From Centruroides vittatus (lineage: Eukaryota): a DNA stretch of 64,000 bases. The notes below the pieces were generated by a model. That model searched no databases. It saw only the letters and a program-made list of their open reading frames with translations, and was not told the origin of the DNA. The DNA lies in NCBI RefSeq assembly GCF_030686945.1, contig NW_027122668.1:124099-188098 (forward strand), in the 5' to 3' direction. A program made the position numbers and the translations under genes. This document shows, one piece after another, positions 15,909-60,416 of this stretch; within the stretch, counting starts at the first letter, position 1, and the number at the start of each line of letters is the position of its first letter.

Positions 15909-17414
15909 TTAACCTAGATGTTAATATTATGAAAACTATTTTATTTTAATTTCAAATTAAATTATTTATTATTGTAATATGTATAATATATTAATTTTTA
16001 ATTCTGAACATTTGGAGATAAAAAGAAATTTATATATTATTTTTATTTATTATCATTAGGTTAAATAAAGAAACAATACATTTACCTAAAACCTATTATT
16101 ATTTTTAAATCCAAAAAATTTATATAAACCTCCAAAATAATTTGGAATATAAATCATCTATTGAGTTACAATCAATAATTTATATACTTTTTTTAAATAA
16201 TTCAAATTTATGATGTAATTTAAAATGTATATTTGTTAAATTTCATAATAAGTAATTATTGAGCTTTCTAAATTGAAAATTTTCCACGATAAAAGGAAAT
16301 TATTATGATCATTACAGGGAAAATTCTCAAAATTTATTATTTATAATGAAGTTAATGGCTATTTAAAACATTCTTCAATTTTTAATTTGTATAAATATTT
16401 AACTGCGTCTTCTTAAATCAAATATGGATTTTAAGTATGTCAAAGATTTGGCATCCGTTCAGTAATCACCTTAATAGCGTTATAATAGCTCGACATAGAT
16501 ACTTGTAAGCCGATAAGAATTAAGTTTAAAGTTTTTTAAATATGAAGGTGTAGAAGTTCTGCATAAAAAGTAATTAAAACTTAATTACAGTTGTATCAAT
16601 TTTTTTTAATTAGAATAATTTTTTTTAAAATTCTGATTATTTTTGCGTTAATTTTGCATCGTACGGTGTTTCATTTTGAAAAGAATTGTAACGAAATCAT
16701 TGATTTTTGTCGTTCTCGAATGCTGCCACATTGATCTACTTCCTTAGATATTGGATCATTGCCAGTAAACAATGAATAATATATATCTACGATATATATT
16801 TTCATGTTTACTGCACGGTTGTCATTTTGACATTTTAAGCTTTAATATATAAATTTCAGGTAATATTTTAAAGATCATTGACTGAGCTTATTATTTATAT
16901 AAAATCTATCATTTTAATTGCACATCTTAACAAATATTTTAAATAATTTTTTTAATATATTTTAATAGTAATAAGTCTAATGTTTAAGTAAAAAAAAAAA
17001 TTATTAAGTACGATTTATTCTGTTTACTTTTACGCATGAAATCAAATGTGTTTTTTTTGTCGGGAAATATATTTTGTAATGCTTGTTTTTATATTACTTT
17101 AATGTTGTTAATCATCATAAATTTTTATTATTTAATGTGTTTATCAGGTTTCTTTGAATTACATAAACAAATTTTTAGAATAATTACTAATTTTATTCTA
17201 ATGTTTTAAATGTTTTCAAGTAAATATTAATTTTTTTTAATAGCAATATATATTTTTTTTTTTTTTTAAAAAAGATTTTCTTCTGATTAAATGTAATCTT
17301 AACAGTTTTATTTGATATAAGAATGGAGTGGTTCTGAATTTTAAAATTATGAAAAACATACATTACTGAAGCAATTATTTAACAAATTTTTGTGCTAGAA
17401 AGGTACAAAAGATG

Positions 17415-17585
17415 CAGTGGCGTAGCGAATGTAACTGTTGCTGGGGTATAACTGGCGCTTGACACTTTATTGGTGCCCCCCTCCAGAAACACACATAGTT
17501 TGTCTTGGAGACCATTTGGGCACCCCTCTGTGAGTGGAGCTCGGTGCATGAAACACCCCCTTGCACCCCCCTTGCTACGCCACTG
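17415..17585. mobile_element. hAT-like MITE (cagtggcgtagc family), present in copy 1 only
   Basis: Same family as 3122..3288, in inverted orientation. At the corresponding site in copy 2 (about 41480) the sequence agaaagggatgaaaggttctcctagtg is uninterrupted. Confidence 0.5.
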
Positions 17586-17886
17586 GAAAGGTGCCTCCTA
17601 GTGTTTTCTTGTCCTGAAGAAGTTCCATTCTAGAGAATTAAGAGTTTGAAAGAGGTTAATTTTTAAAAGTACACAAAATTTGACATGTTTAAGAGAAATT
17701 AAAGGAATTTCTCATCTTTCTATAAGAAGTTGAATTCTATAAAACTTTTAGGACAAACTGTACATATATATAATAATTAAAAGACCTTAAAAAGGTAATA
17801 AGGTGAAGTGATTTGAATTATTAATGTTTAGAAAGTTAAAATTGCTTTCAGTCTCATTTCACCTCAAAATTAATTAGAACTATATA

Positions 17887-18191
17887 CAGTAGAGCATCGA
17901 TTATCCGACTTAATTGGGGACTGGGGTTGGTCGGATAACTGAAAAGTCGGATAACCGAAAAGTATGAAAAAATACATTATTAGTATAGTGTATTAGGCCT
18001 GGTTTAAATACTAGCCTCCCTTTCATCATCGAGCCATGCTGCCAGCTAAAACATGCAAAAATTTAAAAAAATAATATTAAAGTAGCCAAGACAACCAAAT
18101 ATTGTAGCGCCACATCACTAGCGGACATTTGAATTTGCCGACTAGAACGCGGTCAGTTAACCGATAAGTCGGATAATCGATGCTCTACTGT
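17887..18191. mobile_element. Tc1/mariner-like MITE (TIR cagtagagcatcgattatccgac, TA duplication), present in copy 1 only
   Basis: ta|cagtagagcatcgattatccgacttaattgg ... ccgataagtcggataatcgatgctctactg|ta. At the matching position copy 2 carries a different, unrelated insertion (41716..41810 and neighbouring sequence). Confidence 0.55.
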
Positions 18192-18455
18192 AATTATATA
18201 ACAAATACATTTGGGTAGATTGTTTAGTATCTTTACTCATATATTTAATTATTTGTATGATTAAAAACTTAGTTGATTATGGAAGTTACTGTGTTAAAGC
18301 TATAGAAGTTTTTAAATATTTTCTGTTGTTGACCAGTGTATTAAAATTATAAATCTGTACAATCCAAATAAAGAAGTTTTTAAATTTAAATCATACAAAA
18401 TTTATAAGAAAATTGAATTCTTTTCTAATGTTTTCTATATTGTTTAGTTGGCGAA

Positions 18456-21400
18456 ATGACTACTCCAAAGCATAATCGTAATGAGGAGAGTATCTACAGG
18501 ATCCCACCATATTATTATTTACATGTTTTGGACCAGACATCAAATGTTACAAGAGTGGAAGTTGGTCCACAGACATATATTCGCAAGGAAAATGAAAGGT
18601 AAGAAAATTAACTTAAATAAAGCTATAATAATCTCATAATACAAGTTATATATGAAATTAAATTGTAGTATTAACTCTGCACCATATTGATTTTAAGCTG
18701 TAATTAACTGATTTATCAAACTGTTTATTCTTAGAATTTTGAGTTATAAAATATTTCTTTTATTGATGGTTGATTTGAAATTTCCTTTTGCCAATATATA
18801 TACTTTTTTTTCCTCTTTACTATTCGATGCATATTTATTCCAATATACAATTATAAATCAAAAACTGTTAATCATTTTAATGTATTAAAAATAATTCTTT
18901 ATTTTTTTAATGTCCTTACTTTTAAAAATATACCATGTAAATAATGAAATACAGTAAAACTTCTGTAACTTGAAGTTTTTTTCCTGCCTCTTTCAAGTTA
19001 GACAATTCAGATTAGAGAACAATACTGATAAATGCCAATTCCAAGTAGATTAGATCTCTTGCATTTTATATAAAGAATCTTTGATAGTTTTTTGTTTTAA
19101 ACAGCTGTTTAATGCCTTTTCATCAACATGTTAATGTAGCTAACAGAATCAGTTTTGCAGGTACAGTACATCTTATCGAGATAAAGCAACAGATCATCTC
19201 ATTTTGGACTGGAATGTTGTCTATAAATAGGTGTTGGACAGTATATACAACTAACTGTCTGAAAACTTCGTGAAAATCAACAATTAGGATCACTTCAGAC
19301 AGAATAAGTATTAAAATTCAAGTCAGGATCAAGTCAAGTATAAATCTAAACTGAACCAAATATTTCACAAGATTCTAAAAAATGTTACAATAGAACACAT
19401 GTAAATGTCACTATAGAATATAGAAATAAGACTGACTTCTGAAAAGAATATTTTATTGCAATAAATTTGCACTTCTACAACAACCTAAATCAACTTTCAC
19501 AAGGTTTTGGCTTAGTCTTCATCGGTTCAACACCATACTTGTGGAGCCATCTAAAAAAGTTTTTCCCTCTTCTAACTCCTGTATATTTCCATCTTATGGG
19601 TAGAAGACAAAACTAGAGTTAAAATGAATTCTAAGCAATGAATTCTGTAAAACTGTAGCTCTTCAATTAATTAACGAGCATTGAATCTACTAATTAAAGT
19701 ACCTTACAATAGAATATTACTTATATATTATATGAGTATAAATAAAACATGATTTTATTATCATAGTGATATTTTGATAATGATAAGTATTAGGTGACAA
19801 AATTGAGTTGCATGGTCTTAACCAAACAGTTAGTTAGTTAGTTAGTTAGTTAGTTATTGAATAAAATACCAAAAAGGTGCATTTCCGGTACCGTAGAATG
19901 ACAGAACTGAGGGAGTGATTGTAAGAGGTGCAGTGCGAAAGGAAGACACAATGCATGGTCCAATTAAACAAATTTAATTTTGTGCTTAAAAATATATATA
20001 CAGTTTCTTTAGTTTTGCTGTTGTACAATTCCGGCTACCTTCTGATGGTTTCAGTGTTGCAGGCAATCCAGGTAGTTGGTCTTATCCCAACTACTAACCG
20101 ACAATGGTTTGTGTCTAATAGTCTCTTGCGCAATTCCTAATCTAACTTAATCTAATAGAAGATGGATAGAAAAAGGGGAAGTAAGAAGAATAATAGGATA
20201 AGGGGTACCCAGTTTATCGGTGAGTAGTCCAAGTATTTCTTTGTCTCGACTTCCAAATCTTGAACGTTTTATTCTCTTGCAGTTCGGCTATCTCAGAGTT
20301 CTCCTCCAGATGTATCAATATACTTCTTTTTTGATCCGTTCTCTATGGTCTCCTTTTTTACAGCGCTCGTCGGATTCCACTTACGAGCCTTGCCACCACA
20401 CGTCCGTTACCTCTCGTGTCCGGCCCAAGAATGTGTCTTGGAATTTCTATTTTCCCCTCCAGCTCCATCGCAGACTATTGTTTTCACCCTACCTCCTGGT
20501 GGGCTAGGGGAGAGTCTGAGTTCTCGGAAGTTCGAAACAAAGGGAATTGGAAGGAAGGATAAATTTATAGAAATAGAATATAAAATTAAATTAAAAACTA
20601 TACAAAATAGAATGGTGTACAGCCACATGATATTTGTGAGGGTGACAAAAATGAGGGATGAGTGTAATCCAGTCTCTATGAAAAATTTGATCACATTATG
20701 AATTTTTTTTATTCTAGAGTTTAGTTTTGATGTTACAGGAATTCCTTGACTTTTGGACAATTCCCTCCACCTCTTTTTTTGTACATTATATTTTGATACC
20801 TCCGAGTTACTTTTCTTAGATAAAATTTGGATTTTTATACATTTTCAGCGACAAAAAAAAAACATTTGAGAGATTGTGCAGTGACTTGCTACTGATCTAG
20901 ATTTTTCTAACATAAAAATCAATTCATTTTGTAAAAAATTACAGTAGAGACCATCATAATACCGTTTTGTTTTATGTAAAATAGAAATAAATACAGTAGA
21001 GCGTCGAAAAGTGGAACCAATTGGGGACTGGAGTCGTTCCAAGTAGTGATTTTTTCCAATTTCCGATTATGTACGAAAAAATATATTAACCTGTCCGATG
21101 TTCAAATTTTTCTTTGTTGCGTATCGCTTCCTGTTGAATTTTTCTCCGTTGCGTGTCGTTTTGTGTTGAATTTTCGTTGATTTTAAGCCTAACGAAAATT
21201 TTTATAATAATAATCGAGGCTATCGTATCGTTAAAAATTATTTCTTTATTTTGTACAAACAAAATAAATATATTGAAGAATATAAAAAACATGAAAATTA
21301 TACTTTAGAAGTAAATTTAGTATCAAAAACGTTCGATTCAGCACGACACAGTCCGACTGAAAATCGTTTCAGTTTCTGGCCATTTCAATTACCCACGTTC

Positions 21401-24400
21401 CACTTTTCGACGCTCTACTGTACTATAATTTTTAAATAAAATTTTATAATTAAATATTTTCAGAGTTATTTTGGGACCCGAAAAAATGATCATTGTTCCT
21501 CCAGGTCATTATTGTGTGATACAAAATCCTGTGATAAGAGACAATGATGGAATTATTCAATATGATCTATATGGTCAAAGTAAACTGCGACATGCTGACT
21601 TAGAAATAAGATTACAGCAAGATCCTTTTCCTTTATATCCTGGAGAAGTTTTGTTTCAGGTTAGAAGATATTAAATATTCGATTTTTCTTAAAAATTATT
21701 TTAAGTGCATATTAATTTATACATCATAATTAATTTTATAACTTTATTGTACATTGATAAAGAAAGTACAGATTCTATTAATATTTGATTTATATAGAAG
21801 ACTAAGATTTTATTGTCGTGCTATCTATATCCTGGCTGATTAAGTATATCTTACCAAATTACATATCATCTATATATTTAACTAGCCAAGTTACAGTTTG
21901 ATAATAAACCCAATTTTATCATTTAAGTAATAAAATCAATTATGTAGTGTATATTTTTGATATTTATTAATTAACGTCAACTAATTTTAAGTGGATGAAT
22001 AAAATAACTTTTTATACTGATATCAATAAACAATTTATTAGATTATATTATCAGAATTCATCTTTGTCTTCATATTACTCAATTTTTCATTTTGAAATAG
22101 TAATATTTGTGTTCTTTAATTTTAATTTTGCAATTTCATCAAATTTAAGTTACATTTGTGCTATTGTATGCTTGTAAAACAAATATTTTTTTCAAGAATA
22201 CACTAACAAAACATATATAAACGTTTTGAAAATATTTGTGTTAGATGTTTAATTTTAATATTATTCTTAATATACATTATAGTCATGACTATAATGTATA
22301 TTAGTATATTAGTGTTCTCCAGAAATTTTTACCAGTGAGATGAAATGTGTGAAGAGGTTCCAAAAACGAGTTTAAATTAAACATTTATTATAGAAACTTA
22401 TTAAAACAAAACTAGAGGAAAAACACCTCCATTGTTAAAACCGATGAAAGATCAGATTCTTTGTGCTAGTCATATGAAACTGGGACAAGAAAAAAAGACT
22501 ATTAGTGAGGTTGAGGCAGAAGTTTTAAACGTGAAAACGTGTATGTTGGACGTTCAGCGCCACTTTCCTGTAAGCGTGGAAATTTGACAATGATGTTTGG
22601 AATATTGAGCATGATTCCACTGACTTTCCAAATGCCATTGTCAAACTTCTAGGCTTATGGAAAGCGGCGCTGAACGTCCAACATACACGTTTTCACATTT
22701 AAAACTTCTGCCTCAACCTCGCTATTAATGTAAAACACAATGCAATAAATGAAAACTAATGTTCTCCAGTAGAGATGGACCTATGACAAGGCACTCGTAT
22801 ATAAGTAAATAGAACATAGAAAAATTTTGGAAAAGGGAACGGTTAATTATGAAAGGAGACATTGTGTCAGGCCATTAAAATTTTAAGACATCATACACTA
22901 GACAACAATGAGTTAAAATATGAGCGCAAGAGTGGGAAGAAGAGATGTGGAACCAGTCAGAATGGACAAAAGGGGGAGAATGGAGATTGATATAATCCCT
23001 GATTGTCAAGGTCAGGGGACACTCAGTTAGTGGAGTCCAAAGTGAAAAGATGCTGTGTGTCAATACATGGAAGATGGAGCTTTCTGTCCTTGTGCCATGC
23101 CACCGATGCCAACTAATGAATCTCCTCATCTGCTGCAGAAAAAACATCCTCGAACCTTCAATTGTTTAAAGCACTTTGTGCATAGAGTAAGTTATTTCCT
23201 GTCAAAATAAACGTGTTATGTGAGATACTTGTCATCATTTGTCTCCTCTGCCACAATCTCACACGAGCATCCCTAGATCATCCTGACGCGGGATTAACGA
23301 TCTCCTCCTAAAAGTTGGCTAACTTACAAATGGAGTAGCTGGAGTGATAAAAAATACTGCCGTTTTTATAAAATTTTTTATTCATAAATTCAATTCATAT
23401 TTCTTCATAAACAATACATCCACATAGACATAAACAAACACACCTATATTGAAAGTCATTTGAAAGAGACTGTGCAGACAGGGCCGGCCTTCTCGATAAA
23501 GGGGCCCGGGTGCAAGAAACTATTTGGGCCCAAATGTTTTTCTAAAATAAAAAAATTTACAAACACGAACATATATTAATGCATGTTTATTTAAAGCGTG
23601 ATTTTGTTCTTGCTAATACATTAATTACTTCAGAAAAATTACTAAAAATACTGCATTCTTGATAATGTTGGGGCCCCCTCAATCGCGGGGCCCCGGTGCG
23701 TAGCATCCGCCGCACCCCCCCGATGGCCGGCCCTGTGTGCAGAAGTTAATTCACCACATGGATTAGCTTCTGCAAATGTCAGTTGGCAATGGGTGATTAT
23801 ATTGTTAGACTAACCCAATTTTATAGTAGTGAAAGTGTCAGAATATTTTAAAAAGTTTATTAAATATCAGTTTTAGTCAATTTTAATAAATATAACAATA
23901 GTATTTTGTATGAGTAAATCACAGTGTACACAATCTAGCAGAAAAATGCCATGGTAAATTATTGTGAAGCAGAAAAATTTTGTTTCTAAGCATGGAAAAA
24001 TTATAGAAAAGATAATTTTTGCTTTTGTAACAATTACTACAGAAAATGAGAATAGAAAAGTTTTTACATGCCAATTCTGTTTAAAATATTATAAAACAAA
24101 TTGGCATAACCTCAACTATTTTCACCTCGGAATGATGATAGAAGTTCAAGATAGATGATGGTATGGTCAGTTGTAAAGCATTCATTGATCATGATCATTC
24201 TCAATTCCTTTATTATCCATTAAGGCAAACACCCAACAAACTAAACACTTGGTAAATGTTAGAAAATTTATTTACACTTGATATAACATGTATAAGTTCA
24301 ATAAAGGATGCCAACTCTAGGCAAGACCCAATCGTTGGTGGAACAATATGACGACATACTGAATCCATACAAAAATCAATGACACTTATTACAAAAATAA

Positions 24401-27400
24401 TTTTTCTAAAACTAACCCTTAATACTAAATGTACTCTAAGAAAGGAAGATTGCTACTTTTTGCCCCTCTTCAAAGGTGGCAGATAGGACAGAACAAAAAG
24501 TATGCGGGTCATACAAACATCTTCCTGTTATTGTGAGGGGCCATGTGGAAACTTCTTACATACAATACATGCTTGTCTTATCCTCAGTTCCTGAGGGTTT
24601 TTACTTGTATCCAAATTGTCGGTCACTCTTTTGAAACTTTCAACTGGTCAAGAATGCCAACTCAAACACTGGGAATTTCAAGGTTTCCACTCAGTTATAA
24701 CTTCACCCATCTACTTGGGCACCGGACACTATAACATCTCTCTTCTTTCATCATCATTTCTCTTCAAACACCAGCTCAAAAGTGACCTTCCTTTGCCTTG
24801 TACGCCCTCAGATAACCTTGTACTCATTATACTGATTATTTCAGGAAGTGGCTCTCACCTCTAAGAAGGAAGAATTAGAGATTAGCAAGTTCTAGAAGGG
24901 AGAAAGAACAGAGTAAGAAGAACAAAGACGAAAAGCGACATACAGTGGACAATCACAATATGAATAAAAATTACAAAATATTTTACATAATCAGTAGTTA
25001 CTAAAATCCACTAAAAAATAGATAACATTATTTTCTAATTTCTCTCTTATTCTGAAATTATAATCTGAAATAAAAGCATTAATTAATGGAACCTAATCTT
25101 GACACTCCTGTAATGTAAGCCTACTGCCCACTCTACCTAAGTCTCAAACTGATACTGACTGTAAGCAATCGACATTACATGCGATTTTGTTACTTCATTT
25201 ATTGAATTCTTTATGCTACTGAGAGAATTTATCTTTTTCTGCATTACTTTATTGTAAGTAGGAATGGAACTTCACAATTCTGCATTCCTGTTCTTACTCA
25301 CTATTTTGTCGGTGCAAAGAACCAGGCAGCAGATCCATAAAAATGGATCTGATTTCAAACTTTGTAATTTGATACACAGTACTCCTGAATGATAAATCAG
25401 AATGTTTTTTTCTTTAAAAATAATTTACAAAATTTAGAAGTCAAATGACATTTTTAAAATAGAGATATCTTTTTGTATTCCACAAAACTTGGCACTGTGG
25501 TCAACTTTTAAATTCTTAAATATCTACTTCTTATGGAAACTAAATATATATATTTTTGGCCCTAAAGTTGTATTGGAAATTAATGGAAACTGAAGACAGC
25601 CTATTTAGGGCCGAAAACATTTAATTTATAAAAAAAAAAGAAAGTCTTGGATTCCATACAAAGTGGTTACTTAAGAATTTTAAAAAATCATTTGCTTTTG
25701 CATTTATATCTTAAAATTTTCTAAAATTTAATTATTTAATAAATTTTTAGGAAGTGAAACAATTACAAGTTGTTCCTGCAAACTGTGCTCTCAGAGTTCG
25801 AGCATTAAGAGATTTTGAAGATGGTAAAATAAAAAGAATTGCAGGAGACGAATGGCTGTTTGAGGGTCCAGGTATTTAGGTTCATATTTACTAGACATAT
25901 AGTTAGACTTCATAAATTACCGTTAATCAATAAAATTATTTGACTTTGTATTGTTTGTCACACTGAATAAACCACAAGAAAAGACAGAAAAACAAAATTA
26001 ATTTAAAACAGATGTAAATTTTTTAAATGTAAGATGTGTTATCATTAAAAATAACTATAAAAACATTGAGACGTTATAGAAATAAGTTTTATTTCCTCAA
26101 TATTTACTTTCTAAGTAAAAACTTAATTTGTGAAAATCATTTTTCAAAGTTAATCACCAGAATTTATTGCTTTATTTTATAGGAACTTATATACCTCGTA
26201 AAGAAGTAGAAGTAGTAGAAAAAGTTAAAGCAACCGTAATCAAACCAAATCAAGCCTTAAAGCTACGAGCAAAGACCGAAATGATCGATCGTGATGGAGT
26301 AAAGCGTGTAATGGGAGAAGAATGGTTGATTAAAAAAGTTGGTGCTTATTTACCAAGAGCACATGAAGAAATTGTTGATATTGTCAATGCATATATTCTA
26401 ACAGAAAAAGTAACTTATTTGGCTTCACAAAATTTATTTGGTTTTCAACTAAAATTTATATATATGTTAACCTTTCTTATGTACTGAAATTTGTATTTTC
26501 TTTAATATTAGGAAGCGGTTCACGTTCGTGCAATTAACACATTTGTTGACGATCTGGGCAACACTCGAAAGAATGGAGAAGAATGGCTAGTGAAAATGAC
26601 AGATGTCGACACCTACATTCCAGGAGTTTACGAGAAGGTTGTAGGAGTAATACCTATTACGGCGCTTTCAAATCGTCAGTACTGTGTTATTCTAGATCCT
26701 GTAGATGAGAGCGGTAAGCCACAGCTAAGCCAGAAATTGTTGGTTAAGGTAAATTATTTTAATTGTAACTTAATTTTGATTTATAGTAATTTACGAAATT
26801 ACAAGTTTGATTTTTGTATAAATTAAGTTATTCAGTTCATTGAGAGTTCAAATTCTTGAAATTTTCTACATTTATTATTTTATAATTATTTTATTACTAA
26901 AGTCTATAAGCATTTTTATTATTATTTAAATCTAAAATTTTATTAGAAATTTATAATCTACTGAAACAAAGTTACTTACAAAAAAATTCTTAATTTTCTC
27001 ATTTTAATATTGTGGGTGCGCCTGGAAGTGGACAGAGTTGCACCTTCCTTTTTGTCGGCTAATAGGTCGGTGATACCTGCCCATGTCAAGATGGCGGTTC
27101 GGATGGATTACGCGTTATGCATTCTTCGCGAGTGGAGGAAGCGGATGGGTCCGACGATAGAGCGGCGCCGATACTCGAATAAATGACATGAACAACGTAT
27201 AGAAACAACAACAATTTATTAAGACTAGAGCTAAAGGTACAATAGGGCGAGCTACAGTCACCTATGGTTTAGATACGCGGAGGGAGAGTTTACACAAATT
27301 TGGGGAGTCATACCTCGTGGTCCGAATCTGTCCTTTCTCTAGGTCAAAGTATCTTCGGCAAGGTATTCCTTTCGTTCGCCGTCGGAACGCGCACACACTG

Positions 27401-33400: not shown

Positions 33401-33620
33401 TCTAGTTCTTTATAATAAAATGAAAAGTTTATTTGCAAGAAACTCAAACAATATTGTCATAAATTCATTTTATTTTCAGGTAAAGATTCTTCAAGGACTT
33501 GGACTTCATACAACTCTCATCACTGATGGAAATTGCCCCATAAATTTATTTAATACTGCACAAGGATTGATAGGAAATTCCTTATTGGAACCACCCACTA
33601 AAATACAAAAGGTCGAATGA
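18456..33620 (+). CDS. MVP: Major vault protein, copy 1: intact 14-exon gene, 858 aa
   Basis: The translated exons match the MVP family end to end: [33 protein letters not shown]; [15 protein letters not shown]...[22 protein letters not shown]; [23 protein letters not shown]; [14 protein letters not shown]; [16 protein letters not shown]; [19 protein letters not shown]; RVVFGPELV...[32 protein letters not shown]; IRGAIAS..FDDFH; [33 protein letters not shown]; LLELQA.SMAVES.G.AKAEA.S.AEA.RIE; ALGP.TIR..A.AGPE.QVK.LQ.LGL..TLITDG..PINLF. Exons: join(18456..18598, 21464..21659, 25751..25871, 26183..26409, 26512..26748, 28840..28971, 29067..29216, 31137..31381, 31561..31758, 31895..32036, 32112..32323, 32402..32645, 32956..33144, 33480..33620). 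All introns are GT-AG with consistent phase. The total is 2577 nt, or 859 codons including the tga stop at 33618..33620. An acceptor, tgtttag|, immediately before the ATG exon implies an untranslated exon further upstream. Confidence 0.88.
19829..19856. repeat. (TTAG)7 microsatellite, present in copy 1 only
   Basis: The run tagttagttagttagttagttagttag is absent from the matching position in copy 2 (about 44990). Confidence 0.6.
20994..21420. mobile_element. Tc1/mariner-like MITE (TIR cagtagagcgtcgaaaagtggaac, TA duplication), present in copy 1 only, 43 bp upstream of MVP exon 2
   Basis: Filled site: aaataaa ta|cagtagagcgtcg...cgacgctctactg|ta ctataattt. The empty site in copy 2 (about 46735) reads aaataaatactataattt. 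The exon 2 acceptor is at 21463. Confidence 0.6.
22504..22727. mobile_element. Palindromic 225-bp MITE (same family as 6626..6854) in MVP intron 2
   Basis: tagtgaggttgaggcagaagttttaaacgtgaaaacgtg ... its reverse complement. The duplicated image is at 47816..48038. Confidence 0.55.
23479..23735. mobile_element. hAT-like MITE (TIR cagggccggcc, 8-bp duplication tgtgcaga), present in copy 1 only
   Basis: tgtgcaga|cagggccggccttctcg ... gatggccggccctg|tgtgcaga. Copy 2 (about 48910) has the empty site gactgtgtagaagttaattc. Confidence 0.55.
27011..27599. other. Copy-1-specific insertion of about 590 bp (GC-rich, unknown nature) in MVP intron 5
   Basis: Copy 2 (about 52110) reads ttaatatt|ttatacat without interruption. 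Copy 1 has gtgggtgcgcctggaagtgg...ggtttgaattttcacaatatt inserted between the direct repeats aatatt. It has no recognisable TIR, tail or coding signal. ORF 27317..27514 is unsupported. Confidence 0.4.
29844..30062. mobile_element. Palindromic 225-bp MITE (same family) in MVP intron 7
   Basis: tagcgaggttgaggccgaagttttaaatgcgaaaacgtgtaag ... its reverse complement. The duplicated image is at 54352..54570. Confidence 0.55.
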
Positions 33621-35805: not shown

Positions 35806-35814
35806 TATATAAAC

Positions 35815-41715: not shown

Positions 41716-41810
41716 CGTATTTTACGGACTATAAGACGCACCTTTTTCTTCGAAAAATTGCCTCCAAAATTCAGGTGCATCTTATAGTTCGTAAAATACG
41801 GTAATTGTTA
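41716..41810. mobile_element. Small palindromic MITE (cgtattttacggactataagacgcacc ... ggtgcatcttatagttcgtaaaatacg), copy 2 only
   Basis: A perfect inverted repeat with about 30-bp arms. It sits at the site where copy 1 carries the unrelated Tc1-like MITE 17887..18191. Confidence 0.45.
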
Positions 41811-51200: not shown

Positions 51201-54200
51201 TAAATGTAATATGTGTTATCATTAAAAATAACTATAAAAACATTCAGACATTATAGAAATAAGTTTTATTTCCTCAATATTTACTTTCTAAGTAAAAACT
51301 TAATTCTTGAAAATCATTTTTCAAAGTTAATCACCAGAATTTATTGCTTTATTTTATAGGAACTTATATACCTCGTAAAGAAGTAGAAGTAGTAGAAAAA
51401 GTTAAAGCAACCGTAATCAAACCAAATCAAGCCTTAAAGCTACGAGCAAAGACCGAAATGATCGATCGTGATGGAGTAAAGCGCGTAATGGGAGAAGAAT
51501 GGTTGATTAAAAAAGTTGGTGCTTATTTACCAAGAGCACATGAAGAAATTGTTGATATTGTCAATGCATATATTCTAACAGAAAAAGTAAACTTCATTTG
51601 GTTTTCAACTAAAATTTATATATATGTTAACCTTTCTTATGTACTGAAATTTGTATTTTCTTTAATATTAGGAAGCGGTTCACGTTCGTGCAATTAACAC
51701 ATTTGTTGACGATCTGGGCAACACTCGAAAGAATGGAGAAGAATGGCTAGTGAAAATGACAGATGTTGACACCTACATTCCAGGAGTTTACGAGAAGGTT
51801 GTAGGAGTAATACCTATTACGGCGCTTTCAAATCGTCAGTACTGTGTTATTCTAGATCCTGTAGATGAGAGCGGTAAGCCACAGCTAAGCCAGAAATTGT
51901 TGGTTAAGGTAAATTATTTTAATTGTAACTTAATTTTGATTTATAGTAATTTACGAAATTACAAGTTTGATTTTTGTATAAATTAAGTTATTCAGTTTAT
52001 TTATTATTTTATTACTAAAGTCTATAAGCATTTTTATTATTATTTAAATCTAAAATTTTATTAGAAATTTATCATCTACTAAAAGTTACTTAAGAAAAAA
52101 TTCTTAATTTTCTCATTTTAATATTTTATACATATATCATGGCATAAATATAGTTTTCCACAGTAAACTTAATGTAGAATTCCAGTTAAAAATTGATTTT
52201 AACCAAATATAGTTTTTAAATTACCAAAATAACTTCTCAATTTTGAATACAGGTACTCCTCACTTTACGACTGAGTTCCGTTCTGACAACTACGTTGTTA
52301 AGCGAATTGGTCGATAAGTGGGGAGCTTGCTCCAGGAGTATAGGATTGTTGTAAAATTATCCAAATTATTCAACAAACTTCAAATTTATTCATAAAAAGA
52401 CTATTATAGTATGCTATTAGCATATTATAGTACTATAAGACTATTATAGTACGCTTAGTGCGCATGTCACCATTTGCCACTGAACGACACTCAAGCTGAG
52501 AAAGGGGATTCCCTGAATTGCAGGTTGAAACTCAATTGGTCGTAAGTGCGAGTGGTCGTTAAGCAGATAGGTCGTAAAGTGAGGAGTACCTGTAAAGTTA
52601 AGAAAATAGTTAGCAAGAATGTATGGCTCTACTTCCATCAAAATATGGAAACTGATTAGCTCAAGCTCAAAATAGCTGCTTTAAAGTGACTTCCTGGGCT
52701 GTTCACTATGCTTTCTCAAATTTCTTTCATTGTCACTTTCATGCAGTACCTCAGCTTTTCGAGTTTTATACTTACCAATGGTCATTTCCTATTTCTCAAA
52801 CTGTTAGAAAGTAATTTGGTGATTATACAATCTGGTGCTCGTGAAGTTTCGCACTCATATTTCTGATGTTTTATACCATGTAACAATATCCTTTTGATGC
52901 TGGTTTATAAGTTTAGAAATAGCCATTTTCGACATGTTACTATAGTAACAACAATAATAATAAGCAGTATGCCAATAAAACATTATTAATTTACAGTTAA
53001 AATCTTTTAAAGTGTATGTAATAACCTCGTTGAAATGTAAAGAATATAGAAATTAACTTTCTACAGTTCATACAGTAAAATTTTAAAAAAAAATTTATTG
53101 GAAATTTTGCAATTTAACTGAATTAAAATTTTTATTTTTTGAAATACATTTAATTAATAATTGATTTTAAAAAACTTAGTTAAAATGTCACAAAGTTTTT
53201 CCTATTGTGAATTGTCAGATAGAGTTAATATGATACAGAAATAATTAATTTTTAGAAATAAGTTTTTACTTTATATTTCTGAAATCAATATTTTCAAATC
53301 AAAATTTTAAAATTTCTATAACTATAGACGATTTTATTTAAAACAGGGAGATAAATCATTCTTTTTACATCCTGGCGAACATTTGGAAGCTGGTATTCAA
53401 GAAATACATGTGTTGAGCGATAACGAAGGGCTTGTTTTACGTGCAAAAGAAGCTTTTGTAGATACCACCGTAACACCTGTAAGAAAGACTTTTTTCCTCG
53501 TTTATCAGTTTAATAATCATATTAACTATAAATGGGTATAATTTTACAACTTTGAAAACTTTTTATTTTAAAGGCAGTTCAGCGTCAGCCAGGAGATAGA
53601 TGGATGATCAGTGGTGCAGCAGAATATATACCTCCAAACGAAGTAGAAATTTTAGCGAAAAGAAATGCTATTCCTCTTGATGAAAATGAAGGAATATACG
53701 TTAGAAATATTAAAACTGGAAAGGTAAGAGGAAATTTTTAAAAATTTTAGATAAATATGTTTTATCATTATAAGAAAGTTAGTTGGCTAAAAGTTTTATT
53801 TCTTTCAGCTATATTTTAATCTCAATAATAATGATAGAATGTACCTGTACATATTCTATTTAATAATAGATATTATGATAAATATTTTATTAACTGGATA
53901 AATAAGACTACAATATAATATGAATTAAGAGTTCTGCCTTGGGCATGCGAGGCCATGCAGAGCAGTTTCTCCAGTGTGGTGGAGTCTGTAAACAAAAAGT
54001 CCAACTCCAGGAAATTTGTATGGTGTGACTCCTACCTCAGTTTTTTTTTTTTAAAGTAACACTAAGTAGATTCCTTTTTTAAGAAAGACATCATGTGCAG
54101 TGCCTGAATATTTTATTTAACATTTCTCTATAAAATGTTTTTACTAAAATTTGATGATGGTAAGAATCAAAAAATGGATATAACAAATTTACCTCAAAAA

Positions 54201-57200
54201 ACTTTAGAGTACATAAACACACATCTTAATAGCCAAAAGAATTCCACTTTTATTAGTTAATTATGAAAAATTGATTTTAAATTTAATTATTTTAAAGAAG
54301 AAAAATTAAATACAATAAATGCAAAAAATAACGATTTGATGACTGACGTAATAGCGAGGTTGAGGCCGAAGTTTTAAATGCGAAAACGTGTAAGAAAACG
54401 GACGTTCGGCACCGCTTTCCTGTAAGCCTAGAAGTTTTACAATGGTGTTTGGTGTCAGTGGAATCACGCTCGACATTCCAAATGCCATTGTCAAACTTCT
54501 AGGCTTATCGGAAAGTGGCACCGAACGTCAGTCTTACATGTTTTTGCGTTTAAAACTTCTGCCTCAATCTTTTTAATAAATTGGTTCATAAAATAGTTTC
54601 TCCTGCTCTGGCTAGTTGACTAAACTGAAATATACAGTAGAATTTAAAGAAAAATATTTTTTTTTTCCAAATTTTGTCATCTTGGACCAATGGGTGCAGT
54701 CATACCCTGAGAACTTAAACCAGTGAAAAATAAGCTGGAACAATCTTATTAATTAAATTTTGTAGATTTCTCCTTTCTTAGTTTGTTGCAGTTAGATTCT
54801 GATCTTTGTTTTACTTTTTTCATTGATTTTTCTATTGACTGTTTTAAGACCAAATTATGATATCAAAGCTATAATAAATTACTCAAAACCAATAGAAGGG
54901 CAGTGAAAAAATTAATCAATCAAATTAGTAAAAAAAAAAAGTTGATATCCAAAGTAAAACATCTAAGATGTAAAAAATTATGGCACCCAAAATGAAAGTC
55001 AAATTTTTTTTTCTTGGGCTTCTCTTTGGTAAAGATGAGCTTGGCTTTTCGAAGCGATACCACATGCATTTACTTTCCAGGCGCAATCCCACGACTAACT
55101 ACAAGTAATCACTTGTAGTTAGTCGTGTTAGATTAATACAGATTAGTGGTGAAAATAGTGATTTTTATCCACTTGTCACTGGTGGGCCGTAGCTTTTACT
55201 AATTTATTTTCTGAAAGTACACACATCATGTATGAAACGACCTTTATGATTAATATCATTTTGATATCTAAATTAATTGAAGAGTCCATTTTCTAAGAAA
55301 TTTCTTTAGATACTAATTAAAAAGTGTATTTTTTTTTTTTTTTTACTTCACATTTTACAAATAGTAAACTTTGAGGTTGGAGTCAAAAGAATTTTACTGA
55401 CTCCACAACACTTGTTTCTCCTCCTCCTTTTTGAATGTCCAGCCACTTCCACTTGATACTTTATACATGTGTAAATCATCTTATTTCACTACCAAATAAA
55501 ATCTTTGTAATAATGCTAGTGATAACTTTTAAAAAATAAAGCAAAATAATCACTAGTATTATTAAAAATAAAAAATAATTACAGACTTTAATAGCTCACT
55601 AGAAAATATATTTAAGTATTAATGTTTATATTATTTTTAACAAAAAAATGAAAATAGGTTCGTGCAGTCTGTGGAGAAACGTACATGATGAATCAAGATG
55701 AAGAACTTTGGGAAAAAGAGCTGTCGCCAAATGTCGAATCACTTTTGTCGGCTCATTACGATCCGATGGCCGATCGTGGACGGTGGGCAGATAAACAGTC
55801 TGCTGCTTCTGCTCGTTTCCAGAGATAAAACAAGAGTAATAACTTTTCGTGTGCCACATAATGCAGCGATTCAGATATATGATTACAAAGGGAAAAAAGC
55901 ACGGTAAGTTGAAAATTTCACAAAAATACAGTAAGACATTATAATTTTTTTTTTTTTTTTTCCAATTTCTAAATTATTTCATATTTAAATTATGATTTAA
56001 ATGTATTTCAAATTGTTTAGAACAATATACTGAATATTACACAAAAATTGTTTGTAATTTTTAAATTTCATTTTCAAAATAGTGTGGTTTTTGGTCCAGA
56101 ATTGGTTATGTTGGGACCGGACGAACAGTTTACGCAACTAAGTTTATCAGGTCACAAGCCAAAAAAGCCTAATGTGATTCGGTCTTTGTGTCTTCTTCTG
56201 GGACCAGATTTTTGTACTGATGTCATTACTGTTGAAACAGCCGACCATGCTCGCTTACAACTTCAGCTTGCATATAATTGGTAAAAATTTCGGATAATTG
56301 TATAAGAAAATCTGAATAGTGTTTTTGATACTTTGATGATTTAAATTAAGAATATAATTGTTTTTAAATAATTGAAAATAATTTTATGTCGATAATTATT
56401 GTTATTTATTATTTAGGCACTTTGATGTAAGTCAAAAGGATGACGCGACAGCTTCTAAATTATTTGCGGTACCAGATTTTATTGGTGATCTTTGTAAAGC
56501 CGTAGCATCTCGCATTAGAGGAGCCATAGCATCGACTAATTTCGATGACTTTCATAAGGTTAGTAATTATTGTTGATGAAACACCGTTAATAATTTTGAG
56601 AATCCGATAACATTTTATGGAATTGTTAAACAGAATTCTGCTACAATCATCAGAGCTGCAGTTTTTGGCTATGATTCTGATAGAAAGATCAGAAATAGAT
56701 TAATCTTTCCACAGAATAATTTAGTAGTAACTAGTGTAGATATACAAAGTGTAGAACCTGTAGATCAGCGAACTAGAGATTCTCTTCAAAAATCAGTACA
56801 ACTTGCAATTGAGATAACAACTCAAAGTCAAGAAGCAGCTGCCAGGTAACAAAGAAATGATGATTAAAATGCTTTATTAAATGTATATATTTTTTGTTTA
56901 TTAATATTTTACATACTTTATAGACATGAAGCAGAAAGAAGAGAACAAGAAGCCAGAGGAAAATTGGAAAGACAAAGAATTTCCGACGAAGTAGAATCCG
57001 AACGAAGTCGTAAGGATCTTTTAGAATTACAGGCAGCTAGCATGGCAGTAGAAAGCTGCGGACAGGCAAAGGCAGAAGCAAAAAGCAAAGCCGAAGCCCT
57101 GAGAATTGAAGCAGAAACAGCCGTCGAACAAGCTAAATTGAAAGTTGATGCTATGACAATTGAAGCAGTATGAATCTTTTATGTTCCTTTTAATAGTTTT

Positions 57201-58142
57201 TCATTTATTGTAATAATCATAATAATAGAAAAATAGAAAACTGAAATCATTTTCTAATATATTAATATTAAAGTTTCCTTTTATTTCTATTACATCAGAT
57301 AGTTTTCAAACATTGCATTTGTTCAAATTTTTTTTATAGTGAATAATTTTGACTTTAGATATTTTCCTACTATCCTCTATTAGACAGGCTTGAATTAAAC
57401 TTTATAAATACATTGAAATAATTATTTAAGAAATGTTTTTAAATTGCTGCTGTTATATTTAAATAATTTCTTAAAAGGAAGCAGAATTGGAAAGATTGAT
57501 GAAGGCCAGAGATGCCGAAATCAGTTATCTTCGCGAACAAGATGAATTGCAGATTAAGAAATCAAAAGAATTGGCAGAAATAGACGTACAGAAATGCAAG
57601 GATATAATAAGTGCTCTTGGACCCGACACAATTCGTGCCATAGCTCTGGCAGGACCAGAACTACAGGTAAATTGATACGATATAAAATAGTTAATAATTC
57701 ATAGTAGAGCTTCAGTTTTAAAATAGTTTATCATATAAAAACAAATATCAAAATGATATTGCCAAGAAGTTGTTTCTTAATTACTTAATGAAATATTTAC
57801 AAATATATAATTGACTACAATTTTGAGTTTACTTTTGAAAGTCTGTCTGTTCAGTCTGAGTTCAAGCTGAAGAAATACACATGTATGAACACCTATGTGT
57901 AAACTACATGCATTTCAGCTTTTCTAGTTCTTTATAATAAAATGAAAAGTTTATTTGCAAGAAACTCAAACAATATTGTCATAAATTCATTTTATTTTCA
58001 GGTAAAGATTCTTCAAGGACTTGGACTTCATACAACTCTCATCACTGATGGAAATTGCCCCATAAATTTATTTAATACTGCACAAGGATTGATAGGAAAT
58101 TCCTTATTGGAACCACCCACTAAAATACAAAAGGTCGAATGA
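42288..58142 (+). CDS. MVP: Major vault protein, copy 2: same 14-exon structure, but a 1-bp insertion in exon 8 shifts the frame (possible pseudogene or sequencing error)
   Basis: Exons: join(42288..42430, 46775..46970, 50928..51048, 51360..51586, 51672..51908, 53347..53478, 53574..53723, 55658..55903, 56083..56280, 56417..56558, 56634..56845, 56924..57167, 57478..57666, 58002..58142). All splice sites are conserved GT-AG. Exon 8 is 246 nt, against 245 in copy 1. The extra c at 55814 (tctgctgcttctgctCgtttccagagataa, against tctgctacttctgctgtttccagagat in copy 1) puts a taa stop in frame. Other coding differences from copy 1 are mostly synonymous, apart from Gly to Asp in exon 3 (ggt to gac at about 51000) and Thr to Ala in exon 8. 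Confidence 0.75.
45219..45866. other. Copy-2-specific insertion of about 650 bp upstream of MVP exon 2
   Basis: Copy 1 reads ...tctaatagtctcttgcgcaattcc with no interruption at 20128. Copy 2 has ttggctactttgtaactaaaa...aatccaaagtccaaag inserted. ORF 45478..45666 is unsupported. Confidence 0.4.
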
Positions 58143-60416
58143 TTTTTCAGTACGTAAATATAGTAATTCACCACCTCCTTAACAAGTTACTGAATATTTC
58201 TTTGTCTGCAGGAATAAGGAACTCGCTAAGGCCAATGTAAAATTGGATGACTGCCATTTTCATTCCTTAAAATAATTACTGTTACTTGCAAGTGTTAATG
58301 AAGTTTAAGACTGTGTGCAAACTCAGATTTGACATTATTTTGTTGTTGAAATATGAGCATTCTATTTTTAATACTAATGATACAAATTGTTGTTTAAAAT
58401 CAAATATATTTTTCTGCTTTTGCAATTTCTGTAAAATTAAACAGCTTTTCAAGTTTGTCTACATACCATGTGAGGGAAATTGATGTGCTTATAACAAATA
58501 AAAATGTATGCAGATGTTGATTATTTATTTATCTAAATACATCTGCTAGTAGAATATATATATATATATTTATTCTACTAGCAGGCCAGTGTTGCCCAGG
58601 TAAAAAGTAATACAAATAAATATTAAAATTTAAGCATTGCATAATAATTAATGGGGCTTTATTAGGTTTAATGCATTATTATATAATTTTCACTGCATCA
58701 AATTGAAATTATAGGATTCCAGAGGATTTCATCCATAACAATTACCCCTGCAGACCCAGCAATGTTTGGGACCCACAATTGGAAGAAATTTTAAGTTGGT
58801 AAGAAAGTGCAGTGAGATTTTACATTGAAAGTTCTGTAAAGAATATTTTGTACATTTCATTACAGTAGCAAATCTTAAGGTGTTTTTTTGTATATGTAAA
58901 ATTATCTATATCTACCCAAATGTTGGTTATTTGGAAAACATTATTGTTTGTATTGTTTCCAGGGAAAATAAATTTATTTGTAAATAATGTCATTGCTAAC
59001 AAACTATTAGTTTAAGATGCTAAACTAGTTGATAAGTTATCTTTGGGTTCTGTAAAATTGACAAAGACAAGAGGATGCAATGTTATAACCAGTTTTCTTT
59101 TAATGAAAACAATGTTATGTGAAAATATGCCTTCCTTTCGTCTTCACAATAACTAAGTCCCAAGAGACCTATATTCCGCAACTTTTTTCTAAATTCTTTC
59201 CACCTTGTAGACATCGTTTTTTTTCCTCTATACCCATTGTGGGTTTGACCACACCCACAATGGAGACCAACAAGGGGTGAGGGATGGGATCTAACATGAG
59301 TTTAACTAAATGGGAAAACTCTGGGGCATTGCTTGCCCAGATTCAAGCCTGTCCCCAGAATGTTAGGCTTTACTGCCTTGGCCATCCAACCATCTCATGT
59401 TTCTTAACTATCTATGGGAAACATGTATATGCCGAAATTGGTTTTAACAGGAACGTAGACAAAGCATTCTCTCTAATAATGGTCAGATGGACGAGGTAGT
59501 TAAGGCATCAGCCCACTGCTCTGGGGATCCAAGATTGAATTCAGGTGGTCAAAAAAGATTTACTCATGGATCAGGTAAAAGATGAGCTCTTCAAAAAATT
59601 TGCAAGGTCCCTACTGTTTTCCATTAGAGCACTGCAAGTTAGCTTATATTTTCTGCAAGATCCTAGTAACTGAAAAATTTGGTTTGATCAGTCAGATGGC
59701 TTAGAAGTGTACAGAGAACATACAGGCAACAAATACACTATTTCTTATATGTAATTAAAACATAATTAGCAAATTCTGAATTATAAGTCAATATTGAAGA
59801 TGATGATAATAATTAATATAATGTGTAGCAAATCAACAACAAGAAGATCTTATGGATTTTATACATTATCAATACTACACCTTAAATTCTTGTATAGAGT
59901 TAATTTTCTTCTTTTCTGTATTGTTGGCATGCCATTAACTTCTCATAGATGTGCTAAAAAATTTCATTAGATAATGCTAATAAAATATTTGTATACAGGG
60001 TGGGCAGCGAAAACGAAACGGCAGAGTGTTCGTGTTCGTCCAATCAAATCGCTCGGACAGGTCGATTTTATTCTCGAGGGAACATCTTATGCAATAAAGT
60101 TTTTGCAAATCTGAATATTAACTAAACAAACATTTTTTTTCCGAAATAAATGTTTGTTTAGTTAATACAAAATAAATGAGTTTTTAAATTTTTTTGTTGT
60201 CTGTTGTATTCAGAATCGCAAAAACATTATTGCAAAAGATGTCCCATCGAGAATAAAATCGACCTGTCCGAGCGATTTGCTTGGACGAACACGAACACTC
60301 TGCCGTTTCGTTTTCGCTGGCCCACCCTGTATATAGTTTAGCAGATATGAAATCATGTTTCATTTATGTGTATAAGACCATCAATGGAATAATAGCTCAT
60401 TGGTGCAAAAATTAGT

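Follow-up and report, generated by a model that had tools for sequence, protein, structure and literature searches.

The window, meaning the whole 64,000-nucleotide stretch of Centruroides vittatus DNA that was analysed, contains two long, similar units, each carrying a major vault protein (MVP) gene. Comparison of the window with itself by blastn produced collinear matches on the same strand between 16817-35811 and 40929-60335, confirming the tandem duplication of about 19 kb reported in a preliminary description of this sequence. Three-way alignment and a motif search refined the edges to 16781-35811 and 40913-60335; the left edges were within 10 bp of those first proposed, while the right edges matched exactly. 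Each unit began approximately 1.4-1.7 kb before the ATG and ran approximately 2.2 kb past the stop codon, and so the upstream region and 3' part were duplicated with the gene, as had been described. The units and their gene structures were as follows.

16781-35811, 19,031 bp, forward strand: duplicated unit, copy 1 (self-blastn, edge alignments)
40913-60335, 19,423 bp, forward strand: duplicated unit, copy 2 (self-blastn, edge alignments, right-flank match to C. sculpturatus)
35812-40912, 5.1 kb, no strand: spacer between the units, non-coding as far as detectable
18456-33620, forward strand: MVP copy 1 CDS, 14 exons, intact 858-aa ORF
18456-18598, 21464-21659, 25751-25871, 26183-26409, 26512-26748, 28840-28971, 29067-29216, forward strand: MVP copy 1, exons 1-7
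31137-31381, 31561-31758, 31895-32036, 32112-32323, 32402-32645, 32956-33144, 33480-33620, forward strand: MVP copy 1, exons 8-14
42288-58142, forward strand: MVP copy 2, 14 exons as in copy 1, every intron GT-AG, frame broken in exon 8
42288-42430, 46775-46970, 50928-51048, 51360-51586, 51672-51908, 53347-53478, 53574-53723, forward strand: MVP copy 2, exons 1-7
55658-55903, 56083-56280, 56417-56558, 56634-56845, 56924-57167, 57478-57666, 58002-58142, forward strand: MVP copy 2, exons 8-14
55814 and 55826-55828, forward strand: inserted C and premature TAA (codon 459 of 858) in copy-2 exon 8

The duplicated gene is MVP, as originally identified. The copy-1 protein contained five Pfam domains (Vault, Vault_2, Vault_3, Vault_4 and MVP_shoulder, the last at residues 524-641), and the four vault repeat families scored well over their gathering scores. 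Residues 9-851 aligned with the rat and human MVP chains in PDB (E = 0), showing the protein to be collinear over its full length with solved vault shells. At 66-74% identity to the MVPs of many animals, the copy-1 product is predicted to assemble into vault particles. The 858-aa sequence was identical to XP_067140071.1 of C. vittatus; the genome, at first taken to be insect-like, is that of a scorpion, the striped bark scorpion. All 13 introns were bounded by GT-AG in each copy, in keeping with the 14 exons originally reported for both.

The description of two complete genes did not hold for copy 2 as assembled. Here, the inserted C introduced a stop codon and the predicted product is 458 aa long, without Vault_3, the shoulder or the cap-helix region; the exons encoding the shoulder and cap-helix were present and identical to those of copy 1, but out of frame. 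The +1 frameshift would therefore cut the protein short before the regions needed for vault assembly. The insertion was situated outside any homopolymer, with a true difference between the paralogues 9 bp away, and was absent from both copy 1 and C. sculpturatus. Rescue through skipping of exon 8 was ruled out, since this does not restore the frame, and an origin as a processed (retro)pseudogene was ruled out by the retention of all 13 introns and the upstream region. Besides the insertion, the coding sequences differed by 11 substitutions, 9 synonymous and 2 nonsynonymous, and the frame-corrected copy-2 protein differed from copy 1 at G138D and T452A. Copy-2-specific variants were identified in exon 1 (42293C, 42326T, 42329T, 42341G and 42395C). 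The public protein collection contained the copy-1 product but the copy-2 protein in neither its truncated nor its frame-corrected form, and a short-query protein search with exon 8 matched no Centruroides fragments (best match 77% identical). Either copy 2 became a pseudogene or null allele very recently, or it is a casualty of PacBio CLR consensus error.

Both copies were under constraint for a long time, because synonymous coding changes outnumbered nonsynonymous ones by 9 to 2 (omega = 0.06; neutrality rejected, p = 4e-5). On the copy-2 branch there were 3 synonymous changes and 1 nonsynonymous change (p = 0.036). Judged from these substitutions, both copies appear to have been under purifying selection for most of the time since duplication.

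The flanks of the units were delimited through comparison with C. sculpturatus, where one full MVP lies between the same flanking genes; the ancestral order was a ketoacyl-synthase gene, one MVP and a C2H2 zinc-finger gene. The left flank of unit 1 was ancestral upstream sequence that continued unbroken into C. sculpturatus, with 8679-9458 of that locus aligning to window positions 16598-17415 straight over the left edge of the unit. The right flank of unit 2 was ancestral downstream sequence; window positions 60330-60407 aligned to 35777-35857 of the C. sculpturatus locus, directly after a terminal MITE. The order in C. vittatus is therefore upstream flank, unit 1, spacer, unit 2 and downstream flank, with one ancestral flank to each unit. 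There were no N bases in the window and both junctions were continuous sequence, with no gap or contig boundary. Same orientation, collinearity, retained introns and a single ancestral flank for each unit together describe a tandem segmental duplication. The synteny comparison, which had been suggested as a check, yielded one full MVP and the same neighbours, but the short-read C. sculpturatus scaffold also contained an extra block from intron 7 to exon 12, bounded by gaps and with a unique left flank of 856 bp. This block was 99.7-99.9% identical to the first, was set between adjacent positions of the 3' region, and looks like a misplaced contig, although C. sculpturatus may have a second copy.

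Mobile elements were found at the end of both units, within the spacer, and as insertions specific to one copy.

35474-35805, 332 bp, no strand: terminal MITE-like foldback of copy 1, TIRs starting CAGGGTGGGC, TA-flanked
59996-60329, 334 bp, no strand: terminal MITE of copy 2, the same element as in copy 1, followed by ancestral downstream sequence
17887-18190, no strand: copy-1-specific MITE, TA TSD, TIR CAGTAGAGC
20995-21420, no strand: copy-1-specific insertion, TA TSD
23479-23735, no strand: copy-1-specific insertion, 8-bp TSD TGTGCAGA
27012-27593, no strand: copy-1-specific insertion
43384-43936, no strand: copy-2-specific mariner-like MITE, TA TSD, TIR CATGGTATGATCC
41709-42018, 42572-43309, 45226-45854, 48244-48355, no strand: further copy-2-specific insertions
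38760-39007, no strand: foldback element in the spacer
39263-40636, 1.37 kb, no strand: element in the spacer with TIRs of approximately 116 bp

At least eight TE-sized indels had been counted between the copies at the outset, and at least nine were found here. All nine copy-specific insertions, of which several had TIRs and TSDs, were absent from C. sculpturatus; the four in copy 1 were missing at those sites in both copy 2 and C. sculpturatus. The terminal MITE of copy 1 was 82% self-complementary over its full length. Each unit ended 6 bp (TA plus TATA) past the outer TIR end of this element, and to the right of its MITE copy 1 shared just these 6 bp with copy 2. Both duplication breakpoints fell within TATATA microhomology. 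The right breakpoint lies no more than 6 bp from the MITE end, the position expected of transposon-end-mediated duplication, with the 5.1-kb spacer between the element and unit 2. Non-allelic recombination between flanking repeats (NAHR) was ruled out, as neither the terminal MITE nor any other repeat was present at the left edge of unit 1.

The spacer sequence was not present at the C. sculpturatus locus and matched neither flank. Ten ORFs from the spacer and the copy-specific inserts had no match in Pfam except a weak Mos1 HTH among the copy-2-specific insertions, no protein homologues were found for a degenerate spacer ORF of 181 aa, and no transposase was detected in the window. Similarly, no Rfam family or tRNA was detected anywhere in the window. 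The spacer ends may carry an ATATA repeat through which a direct join would be restored, but this may be a chance feature of AT-rich DNA.

Distances between the two copies and C. sculpturatus were calculated strictly from BLAST-aligned columns; forced extension with MAFFT was dropped after it inflated the distances to C. sculpturatus. Rather than the scattered substitutions initially described, this identified three zones of sharply different divergence, two of which are delimited here.

16781-18455, copy-2 partner 40913-42287, forward strand: zone 1, the upstream region, paralogue divergence of 7%, about the between-species level
28773-35104, copy-2 partner 53280-59626, forward strand: zone 3, a near-identical tract with exons 6-14 and the 3' region

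Noncoding divergence between paralogues was 6.95%, 2.37% and 0.20% in zones 1, 2 and 3 respectively (chi2 = 201, p = 3e-44), while divergence between species in the same zones was 7.2%, 8.8% and 9.3%, which was homogeneous (p = 0.11). A smooth 5'-to-3' gradient of identity, the impression given by the raw BLAST output, was rejected in favour of these discrete zones. In zone 1, 68 of 979 sites differed between the copies, and 70 between copy 1 and C. sculpturatus. Unique sites here numbered 20 for copy 1, 47 for copy 2 and 49 for C. sculpturatus, making the copy-2 branch longer than that of copy 1, and no rooting of these values fitted a strict clock. Zone 1 is most readily seen, from its divergence, as the oldest stratum. 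In zones 2 and 3, both copies clustered together, well away from C. sculpturatus. A block at 27594-28772 showed 4.1% divergence, of which half was due to CpG transitions and the remainder was in line with zone 2; a sharp step followed at about 28772. Within zone 3 there were no differences at all over 31293-34535, and those observed elsewhere were mostly substitutions; by our own count, exons were not significantly depleted in indels relative to introns. Towards the end of the unit, divergence climbed once more over the final 175-700 bp: the last 175 bp contained 4 differences, compared with 1 in the 3.8 kb before them. Sharp-edged blocks of paralogue similarity, uniform orthologue divergence, and homology that continues past the near-identical tract are the pattern expected of gene conversion. 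Relative to the one outgroup used, the contrast between stepped paralogue divergence and flat species divergence suggests later interlocus gene conversion.

These observations are probably explained by a genuine tandem duplication that took in the entire MVP locus, in the lineage of C. vittatus after its split from C. sculpturatus, consistent with the moderate age put forward previously. Its timing rests on the terminal MITE, which ends both units while the corresponding site in C. sculpturatus is apparently clean and empty; this points to duplication after the species split. Later conversion could not have added the MITE to copy 1, because only 6 bp are shared to its right. If the duplication were instead older and shared by the two species, the short-read C. 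sculpturatus assembly would have collapsed it, leaving the stray block containing exons 8-12 as a trace. The near-equality of the two zone 1 distances would suit such a history, as would the unique left flank of the gap-bounded block. However, it is very unlikely given the empty MITE site, the near-identity of the extra block to the first, and the grouping of both C. vittatus copies in zones 2 and 3. The haplotype alternative raised in the preliminary description was the right rival to consider: alleles of a single-copy MVP from two pooled individuals may have been linearised in tandem, the spacer being a chimeric repeat join. The C. vittatus assembly was made with Flye from PacBio CLR reads pooled from one male and one female, with no haplotig purging described and 5.2% of BUSCOs duplicated (PMC11304958). 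The 3' 7 kb differs by 0.2%, a level expected of alleles, and a single C. vittatus MVP occurs in the protein collection. Yet only this 3' part is allele-like; noncoding divergence at aligned sites is 2.4-7% in the 5' 11 kb, or 27-81% of between-species divergence, and this part contains the nine copy-specific insertions. Neither junction has an N gap and the spacer is unlike either flank; for the join to be false, matching repeats would have to occur in two haplotypes at two particular positions. An assembly artefact is accordingly considered highly improbable.

Accepting the duplication as real, both genes may yet be intact and functional, with increased dosage and similarity maintained by conversion, if the C at 55814 were an error of consensus or polishing. 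The consensus was derived from CLR reads with limited polishing, and the insertion lies close to a true paralogous difference in a near-identical tract, where mis-assigned reads can corrupt the consensus. The substitutions on the copy-2 lineage, the integrity of every splice site and the frequency of zone 3 indels in exons also favour this explanation. Against it, the inserted C is not in a homopolymer, no frameshift occurs in approximately 6.5 kb of coding sequence elsewhere in the window, zone 3 differences are mainly substitutions, and the frame-corrected protein is missing from a collection that holds the copy-1 product. On balance, it is possible but doubtful that both genes are intact. 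We regard as improbable the fuller proposition that consensus error accounts for the frameshift and both genes are intact, that recurrent conversion has kept them near-identical, and that the duplication stems from breakage, or from aberrant transposition, at the terminus of a Tc1/mariner-type MITE.

Under the preferred reading, a lineage-specific tandem duplication, a TA-flanked MITE would have inserted downstream of MVP, and the segment up to 6 bp past it would then have been duplicated head to tail. The join may have arisen through microhomology-mediated repair or replication slippage, or from a transposase-made break at the MITE end. The 5.1 kb of TE-bearing non-coding sequence would have arrived at the junction subsequently, after which the copies would have diverged, each gaining its own MITE insertions. 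Interlocus gene conversion may then have re-homogenised the gene body first and, very recently, the 3' 6-7 kb (exons 6-14).

Several known systems resemble this arrangement in part. In maize, alternative transposition of Ac/Ds yields tandem direct duplications whose boundary, as in C. vittatus, is at a DNA-transposon terminus; one copy of the element marks the junction and a second lies at the far end. The C. vittatus element is a TA-flanked, Tc1/mariner-like MITE rather than a hAT element, the spacer parts it from unit 2, and plain TATATA microhomology explains the junction equally well. The human HBG1/HBG2 genes are a tandem pair in which one part is near-identical and the rest more diverged, with a sharp boundary, read as interlocus conversion after an older duplication. 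The MVP pair shares this sharp-edged partial identity, but HBG1/HBG2 belong to another gene family and span 5 kb, whereas the C. vittatus units span 19 kb with three strata, and the direction and mechanism of conversion are deduced only from divergence against one outgroup. Heterotype false duplications in long-read assemblies also place similar copies of a normally single-copy gene side by side, and resemble this locus in the adjacency of the copies and in coming from assemblies made without haplotig purging; they differ in the features of the junctions, 5' half and spacer that argue against an artefact here.

The premise of an insect-like genome devoid of vaults is corrected by these results. 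A protein homologue search recovered MVP from scorpions, spiders, horseshoe crabs, sea spiders and myriapods. Among ecdysozoans most lineages have it, the exceptions being Pterygota, Acari and Malacostraca (PMC11219742); chelicerates normally keep the gene. The MVP of another scorpion was found in many SRA runs and is therefore expressed there, an observation that is uninformative on duplication. Nor is MVP duplication as unusual as was thought. At least two MVPs occur in Limulus; the two proteins each show 72-74% identity to that of the scorpion and are encoded on different contigs, unlike the tandem, near-identical pair of C. vittatus. Three paralogues are present in the salmon louse, of which two arose recently (PMC11219742), and several genes occur in kinetoplastids and Paramecium (PMC3762200). 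Horseshoe crabs, Dictyostelium, kinetoplastids and Paramecium share with C. vittatus the possession of more than one MVP gene per genome, but their paralogues are older and more diverged. The closest parallel is LsMvp2/LsMvp3 of the salmon louse, likewise a recent, lineage-specific, full-length duplication in an arthropod, with highly similar copies on the same chromosome (PMC11219742). However, the salmon louse genes have 3 exons against 14 in C. vittatus, and every one of its paralogues is intact, with demonstrated expression (PMC11219742), while C. vittatus copy 2 is a predicted gene that is frameshifted as assembled.

The MVP duplication is thus probably an ordinary lineage-specific gene duplication; its biological value is modest and it raises no new question on vault function. 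For the C. vittatus reference, the copy number at the MVP locus and the status of copy 2 need read-level validation before they enter gene-family counts. The locus provides a clean, small case of stratified divergence between tandem duplicates, likely through gene conversion, with a duplication breakpoint that adjoins a MITE end, and it extends the short list of known MVP duplications by one from a chelicerate. Were the pair intact and its origin at the MITE end true, this would be a documented MITE-end-associated gene duplication, followed by the concerted evolution of an arachnid vault gene.

Comparison of the window with itself using BLAST returned two collinear copies on the same strand, with initial blocks at 16817-35811 and 40929-60335. 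Once the edges had been aligned together with the Centruroides sculpturatus orthologue as a third sequence, the arrangement around the major vault protein (MVP) genes was as follows:

16781-35811, unit 1 (copy 1), 19,031 bp
35812-40912, spacer separating units 1 and 2, 5,101 bp
38760-39007, foldback element within the spacer
39263-40636, 1.37-kb element within the spacer, with terminal inverted repeats (TIRs) of approximately 116 bp
40913-60335, unit 2 (copy 2), 19,423 bp

The unit coordinates in the preliminary description were accurate to within 10 bp of these edges, and there were no N bases in the whole 64 kb. The spacer produced no Pfam matches in a profile search and no protein homologues, and had no counterpart at the C. 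sculpturatus MVP locus. A segment of the spacer (39141-39241) was 97% identical over 100 bp to positions 1-104 of the window; this is a further dispersed repeat.

The MVP locus of C. sculpturatus (scaffold KZ494992.1, hereafter L001) comprised a ketoacyl-synthase gene, one full MVP gene of 14 exons and a gene matching the C2H2 zinc-finger gene of the window, in that order. Its upstream sequence was continuous into unit 1, while its downstream sequence picked up from the end of unit 2; therefore, each unit adjoins one ancestral flank, as tandem duplication predicts. L001 also contained an extra copy of MVP from intron 7 to exon 12 (27746-34053), 99.7–99.9% identical to the first and given its own NCBI annotation as a protein of 339 aa, 'major vault protein-like' (XP_023240240.1). 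This block had 856 bp of unique sequence before the MVP part, was bounded by an N and a 2.2-kb gap, and lay within the 3' region, separating two positions that otherwise adjoin. A misplaced contig or scaffolding artefact is the probable explanation, but the block may be the trace of a second MVP copy in C. sculpturatus. Within the C. sculpturatus MVP gene, a single N (24035) stands between the two halves of an exact 160-bp duplication (L001 23875-24195), an artefact typical of gap closure.

Other features of the window were as follows:

3054-3381 and 17378-17629, members of one repeat family
4035-5057, forward strand, hydrophobic-looking open frame of 341 aa, with no Pfam match at E <= 0.001
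approximately 5500-5990, 6912-7185, 60356-60722 and 62407-63100, a GC-richer dispersed repeat family, in both orientations and flanking the MVP units on both sides
7867-9216, forward strand, long open exon that encodes a beta-ketoacyl synthase, with both the N- and the C-terminal Pfam ketoacyl-synt domain; C. sculpturatus has the syntenic gene upstream of its MVP
63017-63684, region with 94.6% identity to the gene downstream of C. sculpturatus MVP
63325-63705, forward strand, C2H2 zinc-finger ORF

The ketoacyl-synthase ORF had no start codon and so there must be at least one upstream exon. The frame at 4035-5057 may belong, as an exon, to a membrane protein gene that lacks annotation, or may have arisen by chance. 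The GC-richer family was seen as recurrent pseudo-ORFs (e.g., 'GRPGGEGRGPTY...PEKFLGIF').

Both units ended in a TA-flanked foldback element, or terminal MITE, of 332–334 bp (35474-35805 in copy 1, 59996-60329 in copy 2), which was 82% self-complementary across its whole length and had TIRs beginning CAGGGTGGGC. The matching site in C. sculpturatus was empty (GTATA/TATAT). Homology between the units ended 6 bp (TATATA) past the outer TIR and the left edge of the units began ATATATCTAC; both breakpoints therefore lay in TATATA-type microhomology. Since only 6 bp were shared to the right of the copy 1 MITE, later conversion could not have put the element there, and it must have belonged to the duplicated segment. 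Together with the empty C. sculpturatus site, this would place the species split first, then MITE insertion and then duplication, assuming that the empty site is ancestral. A breakpoint so near to a transposon end suggests that a transposase-induced break, or aberrant transposition, at the MITE end may have created the duplication; simple microhomology-mediated joining would account for the junction equally well. Unequal crossing-over between flanking repeats was excluded because the left edge of unit 1 had no repeat.

Divergence was calculated from noncoding sites only, where these were BLAST-aligned in copy 1, copy 2 and C. sculpturatus.

Noncoding p-distances by zone (copy 1 coordinates)
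Zone 1, 16800-18455, upstream of the ATG: paralogues 6.95%; copy 1 and C. sculpturatus 7.2%
Zone 2, 18599-26900, introns 1–5: paralogues 2.37%; copy 1 and C. sculpturatus 8.8%
Zone 3, 28773-35480, exon 6 to 3' region: paralogues 0.20%; copy 1 and C. sculpturatus 9.3%

Paralogue divergence was strongly heterogeneous among zones (chi2 = 201, p = 3e-44), while the distance between species was homogeneous (p = 0.11). Zone 3 began with a sharp step at approximately 28772, included a region without any difference between copies (31293-34535), and gave way to climbing divergence over the final 175 bp of the unit. Such discrete strata among paralogues, on a flat orthologue background, suggest interlocus gene conversion following an older duplication, with the least-converted edge suggesting an age of approximately 0.6–0.9 of the species split. 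The block preceding the step (27594-28772 in copy 1, 52120-53279 in copy 2) showed 4.1% divergence between paralogues, with 22 of 48 substitutions being transitions in CpG context; divergence was 2.2% when these were removed, in line with zone 2. This pattern suggests a methylated, TE-derived segment decaying through CpG deamination. In zone 1, private substitutions were more numerous in copy 2 (47, over 40930-42287) than in copy 1 (20, over 16800-18455; p = 0.0013), which could reflect relaxed constraint on the region upstream of copy 2, or regulatory divergence of that copy. The zone 2 branches were symmetric (37 vs 43 unique sites).

Private insertions numbered four or five in copy 1 and five in copy 2; all were in zones 1 and 2, and none was present at the corresponding C. 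sculpturatus sites. Those of copy 2 included inserts at 45226-45854 and 48244-48355. Several had clear TIRs and target-site duplications, which were TA for mariner-like elements, and an 8-bp duplication, TGTGCAGA, for one hAT-like element. A TA-flanked MITE with the TIR CAGTAGAGC occupied 17887-18190 in copy 1, while an unrelated element of 310 bp (41709-42018) occupied exactly the homologous TA site in copy 2; this site was empty in C. sculpturatus. These were either two independent insertions at a single site, or a replacement.

The published assembly combined PacBio CLR reads pooled from one male and one female, short-read correction from another female, and Flye; haplotig purging was not described and duplicated BUSCOs stood at 5.2% (PMC11304958). 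With such a procedure, false duplications and leftover indel errors are more likely a priori. However, a false duplication is an improbable explanation for the tandem units, given that the 5' 11 kb diverged by 2.4–7% (27–81% of the distance to another species), that there were nine private TE-sized insertions, that neither junction had a gap, and that a unique 5.1-kb spacer is not expected from a simple haplotype join.

Exons were modelled with a tblastn probe, after which splice sites were defined manually. Each copy had 14 MVP exons and all introns were GT-AG. Copy 1 encoded an uninterrupted protein of 858 aa with Pfam Vault, Vault_2, Vault_3, Vault_4 and MVP_shoulder domains, of which residues 9–851 aligned with solved vault chains of rat and human. 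Copy 2 had the same exons, except that exon 8 contained an additional C at 55814; thereafter the frame read CGT TTC CAG AGA TAA, with the stop (55826-55828) at codon 459. The predicted product would be without Vault_3, the shoulder and the C-terminal helical region, and skipping exon 8 did not restore the frame. Two complete MVP genes had been described; copy 1 is indeed complete, but copy 2 is disrupted, and the locus as assembled therefore consists of one complete and one disrupted gene.

With the inserted base removed, the coding sequences differed by nine synonymous and two nonsynonymous changes (dS 0.016, dN 0.001, omega 0.06; p = 4e-5 against neutrality). In exons 1–5, dS was 0.046 between paralogues, against 0.094 between species. 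Polarised with C. sculpturatus, the changes comprised three synonymous, G138D and the frameshift on the copy 2 branch, and six synonymous and A452T on the copy 1 branch. Exonic variants distinguishing copy 1 from copy 2 included 18461T/42293C, 18494C/42326T, 18497C/42329T, 18509A/42341G, 18563T/42395C, 25824-25825 GT/51001-51002 AC and 31284A/55805G. The distribution of changes indicates that both copies spent most of their history under constraint, and that the frameshift, if real, would be very recent.

The frameshift is about as likely to be real as to be a consensus error. The site was not within a homopolymer, differences inside the near-identical tract were mostly substitutions, and the reading frame was intact through approximately 6.5 kb of coding sequence elsewhere in the window, all of which argue against error. 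In favour of error, only 9 bp separated the frameshift from a true paralogous substitution (31284-31292 / 55805-55814), and the 3.2-kb stretch of zero difference had its 5' limit exactly there; the pair could be where the latest conversion tract ended. At such a site, mis-assigned reads in polishing would yield a false frameshift, while error-prone repair synthesis at a conversion-tract end would yield a real one. Protein searches for independent sequence covering the site found none; the public protein collection contained the copy 1 product, and neither a truncated nor a frame-corrected version of copy 2.

The copy 1 protein matched XP_067140071.1 of Centruroides vittatus at every residue, and its nearest match from another species was the C. 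sculpturatus MVP-like protein (97% identity). The window therefore belongs to the striped bark scorpion, and not to the insect-like genome that had been supposed. MVP matches from protein searches came from spiders, a sea spider, myriapods and many other invertebrates, as well as from horseshoe crabs, which have at least two genes. According to a 2024 survey, most ecdysozoan lineages have MVP, Pterygota, Acari and Malacostraca have lost it, and the salmon louse has three paralogues, of which two are recent (PMC11219742); the older claim that arthropods are without MVP (PMC3762200) is outdated. Hence, the main ground for surprise at a duplicated MVP fails. In this scorpion, a conserved gene has most probably undergone tandem duplication of an ordinary, lineage-specific kind. 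Its secondary features are stratified divergence, which suggests gene conversion, and a breakpoint adjacent to the end of a MITE.
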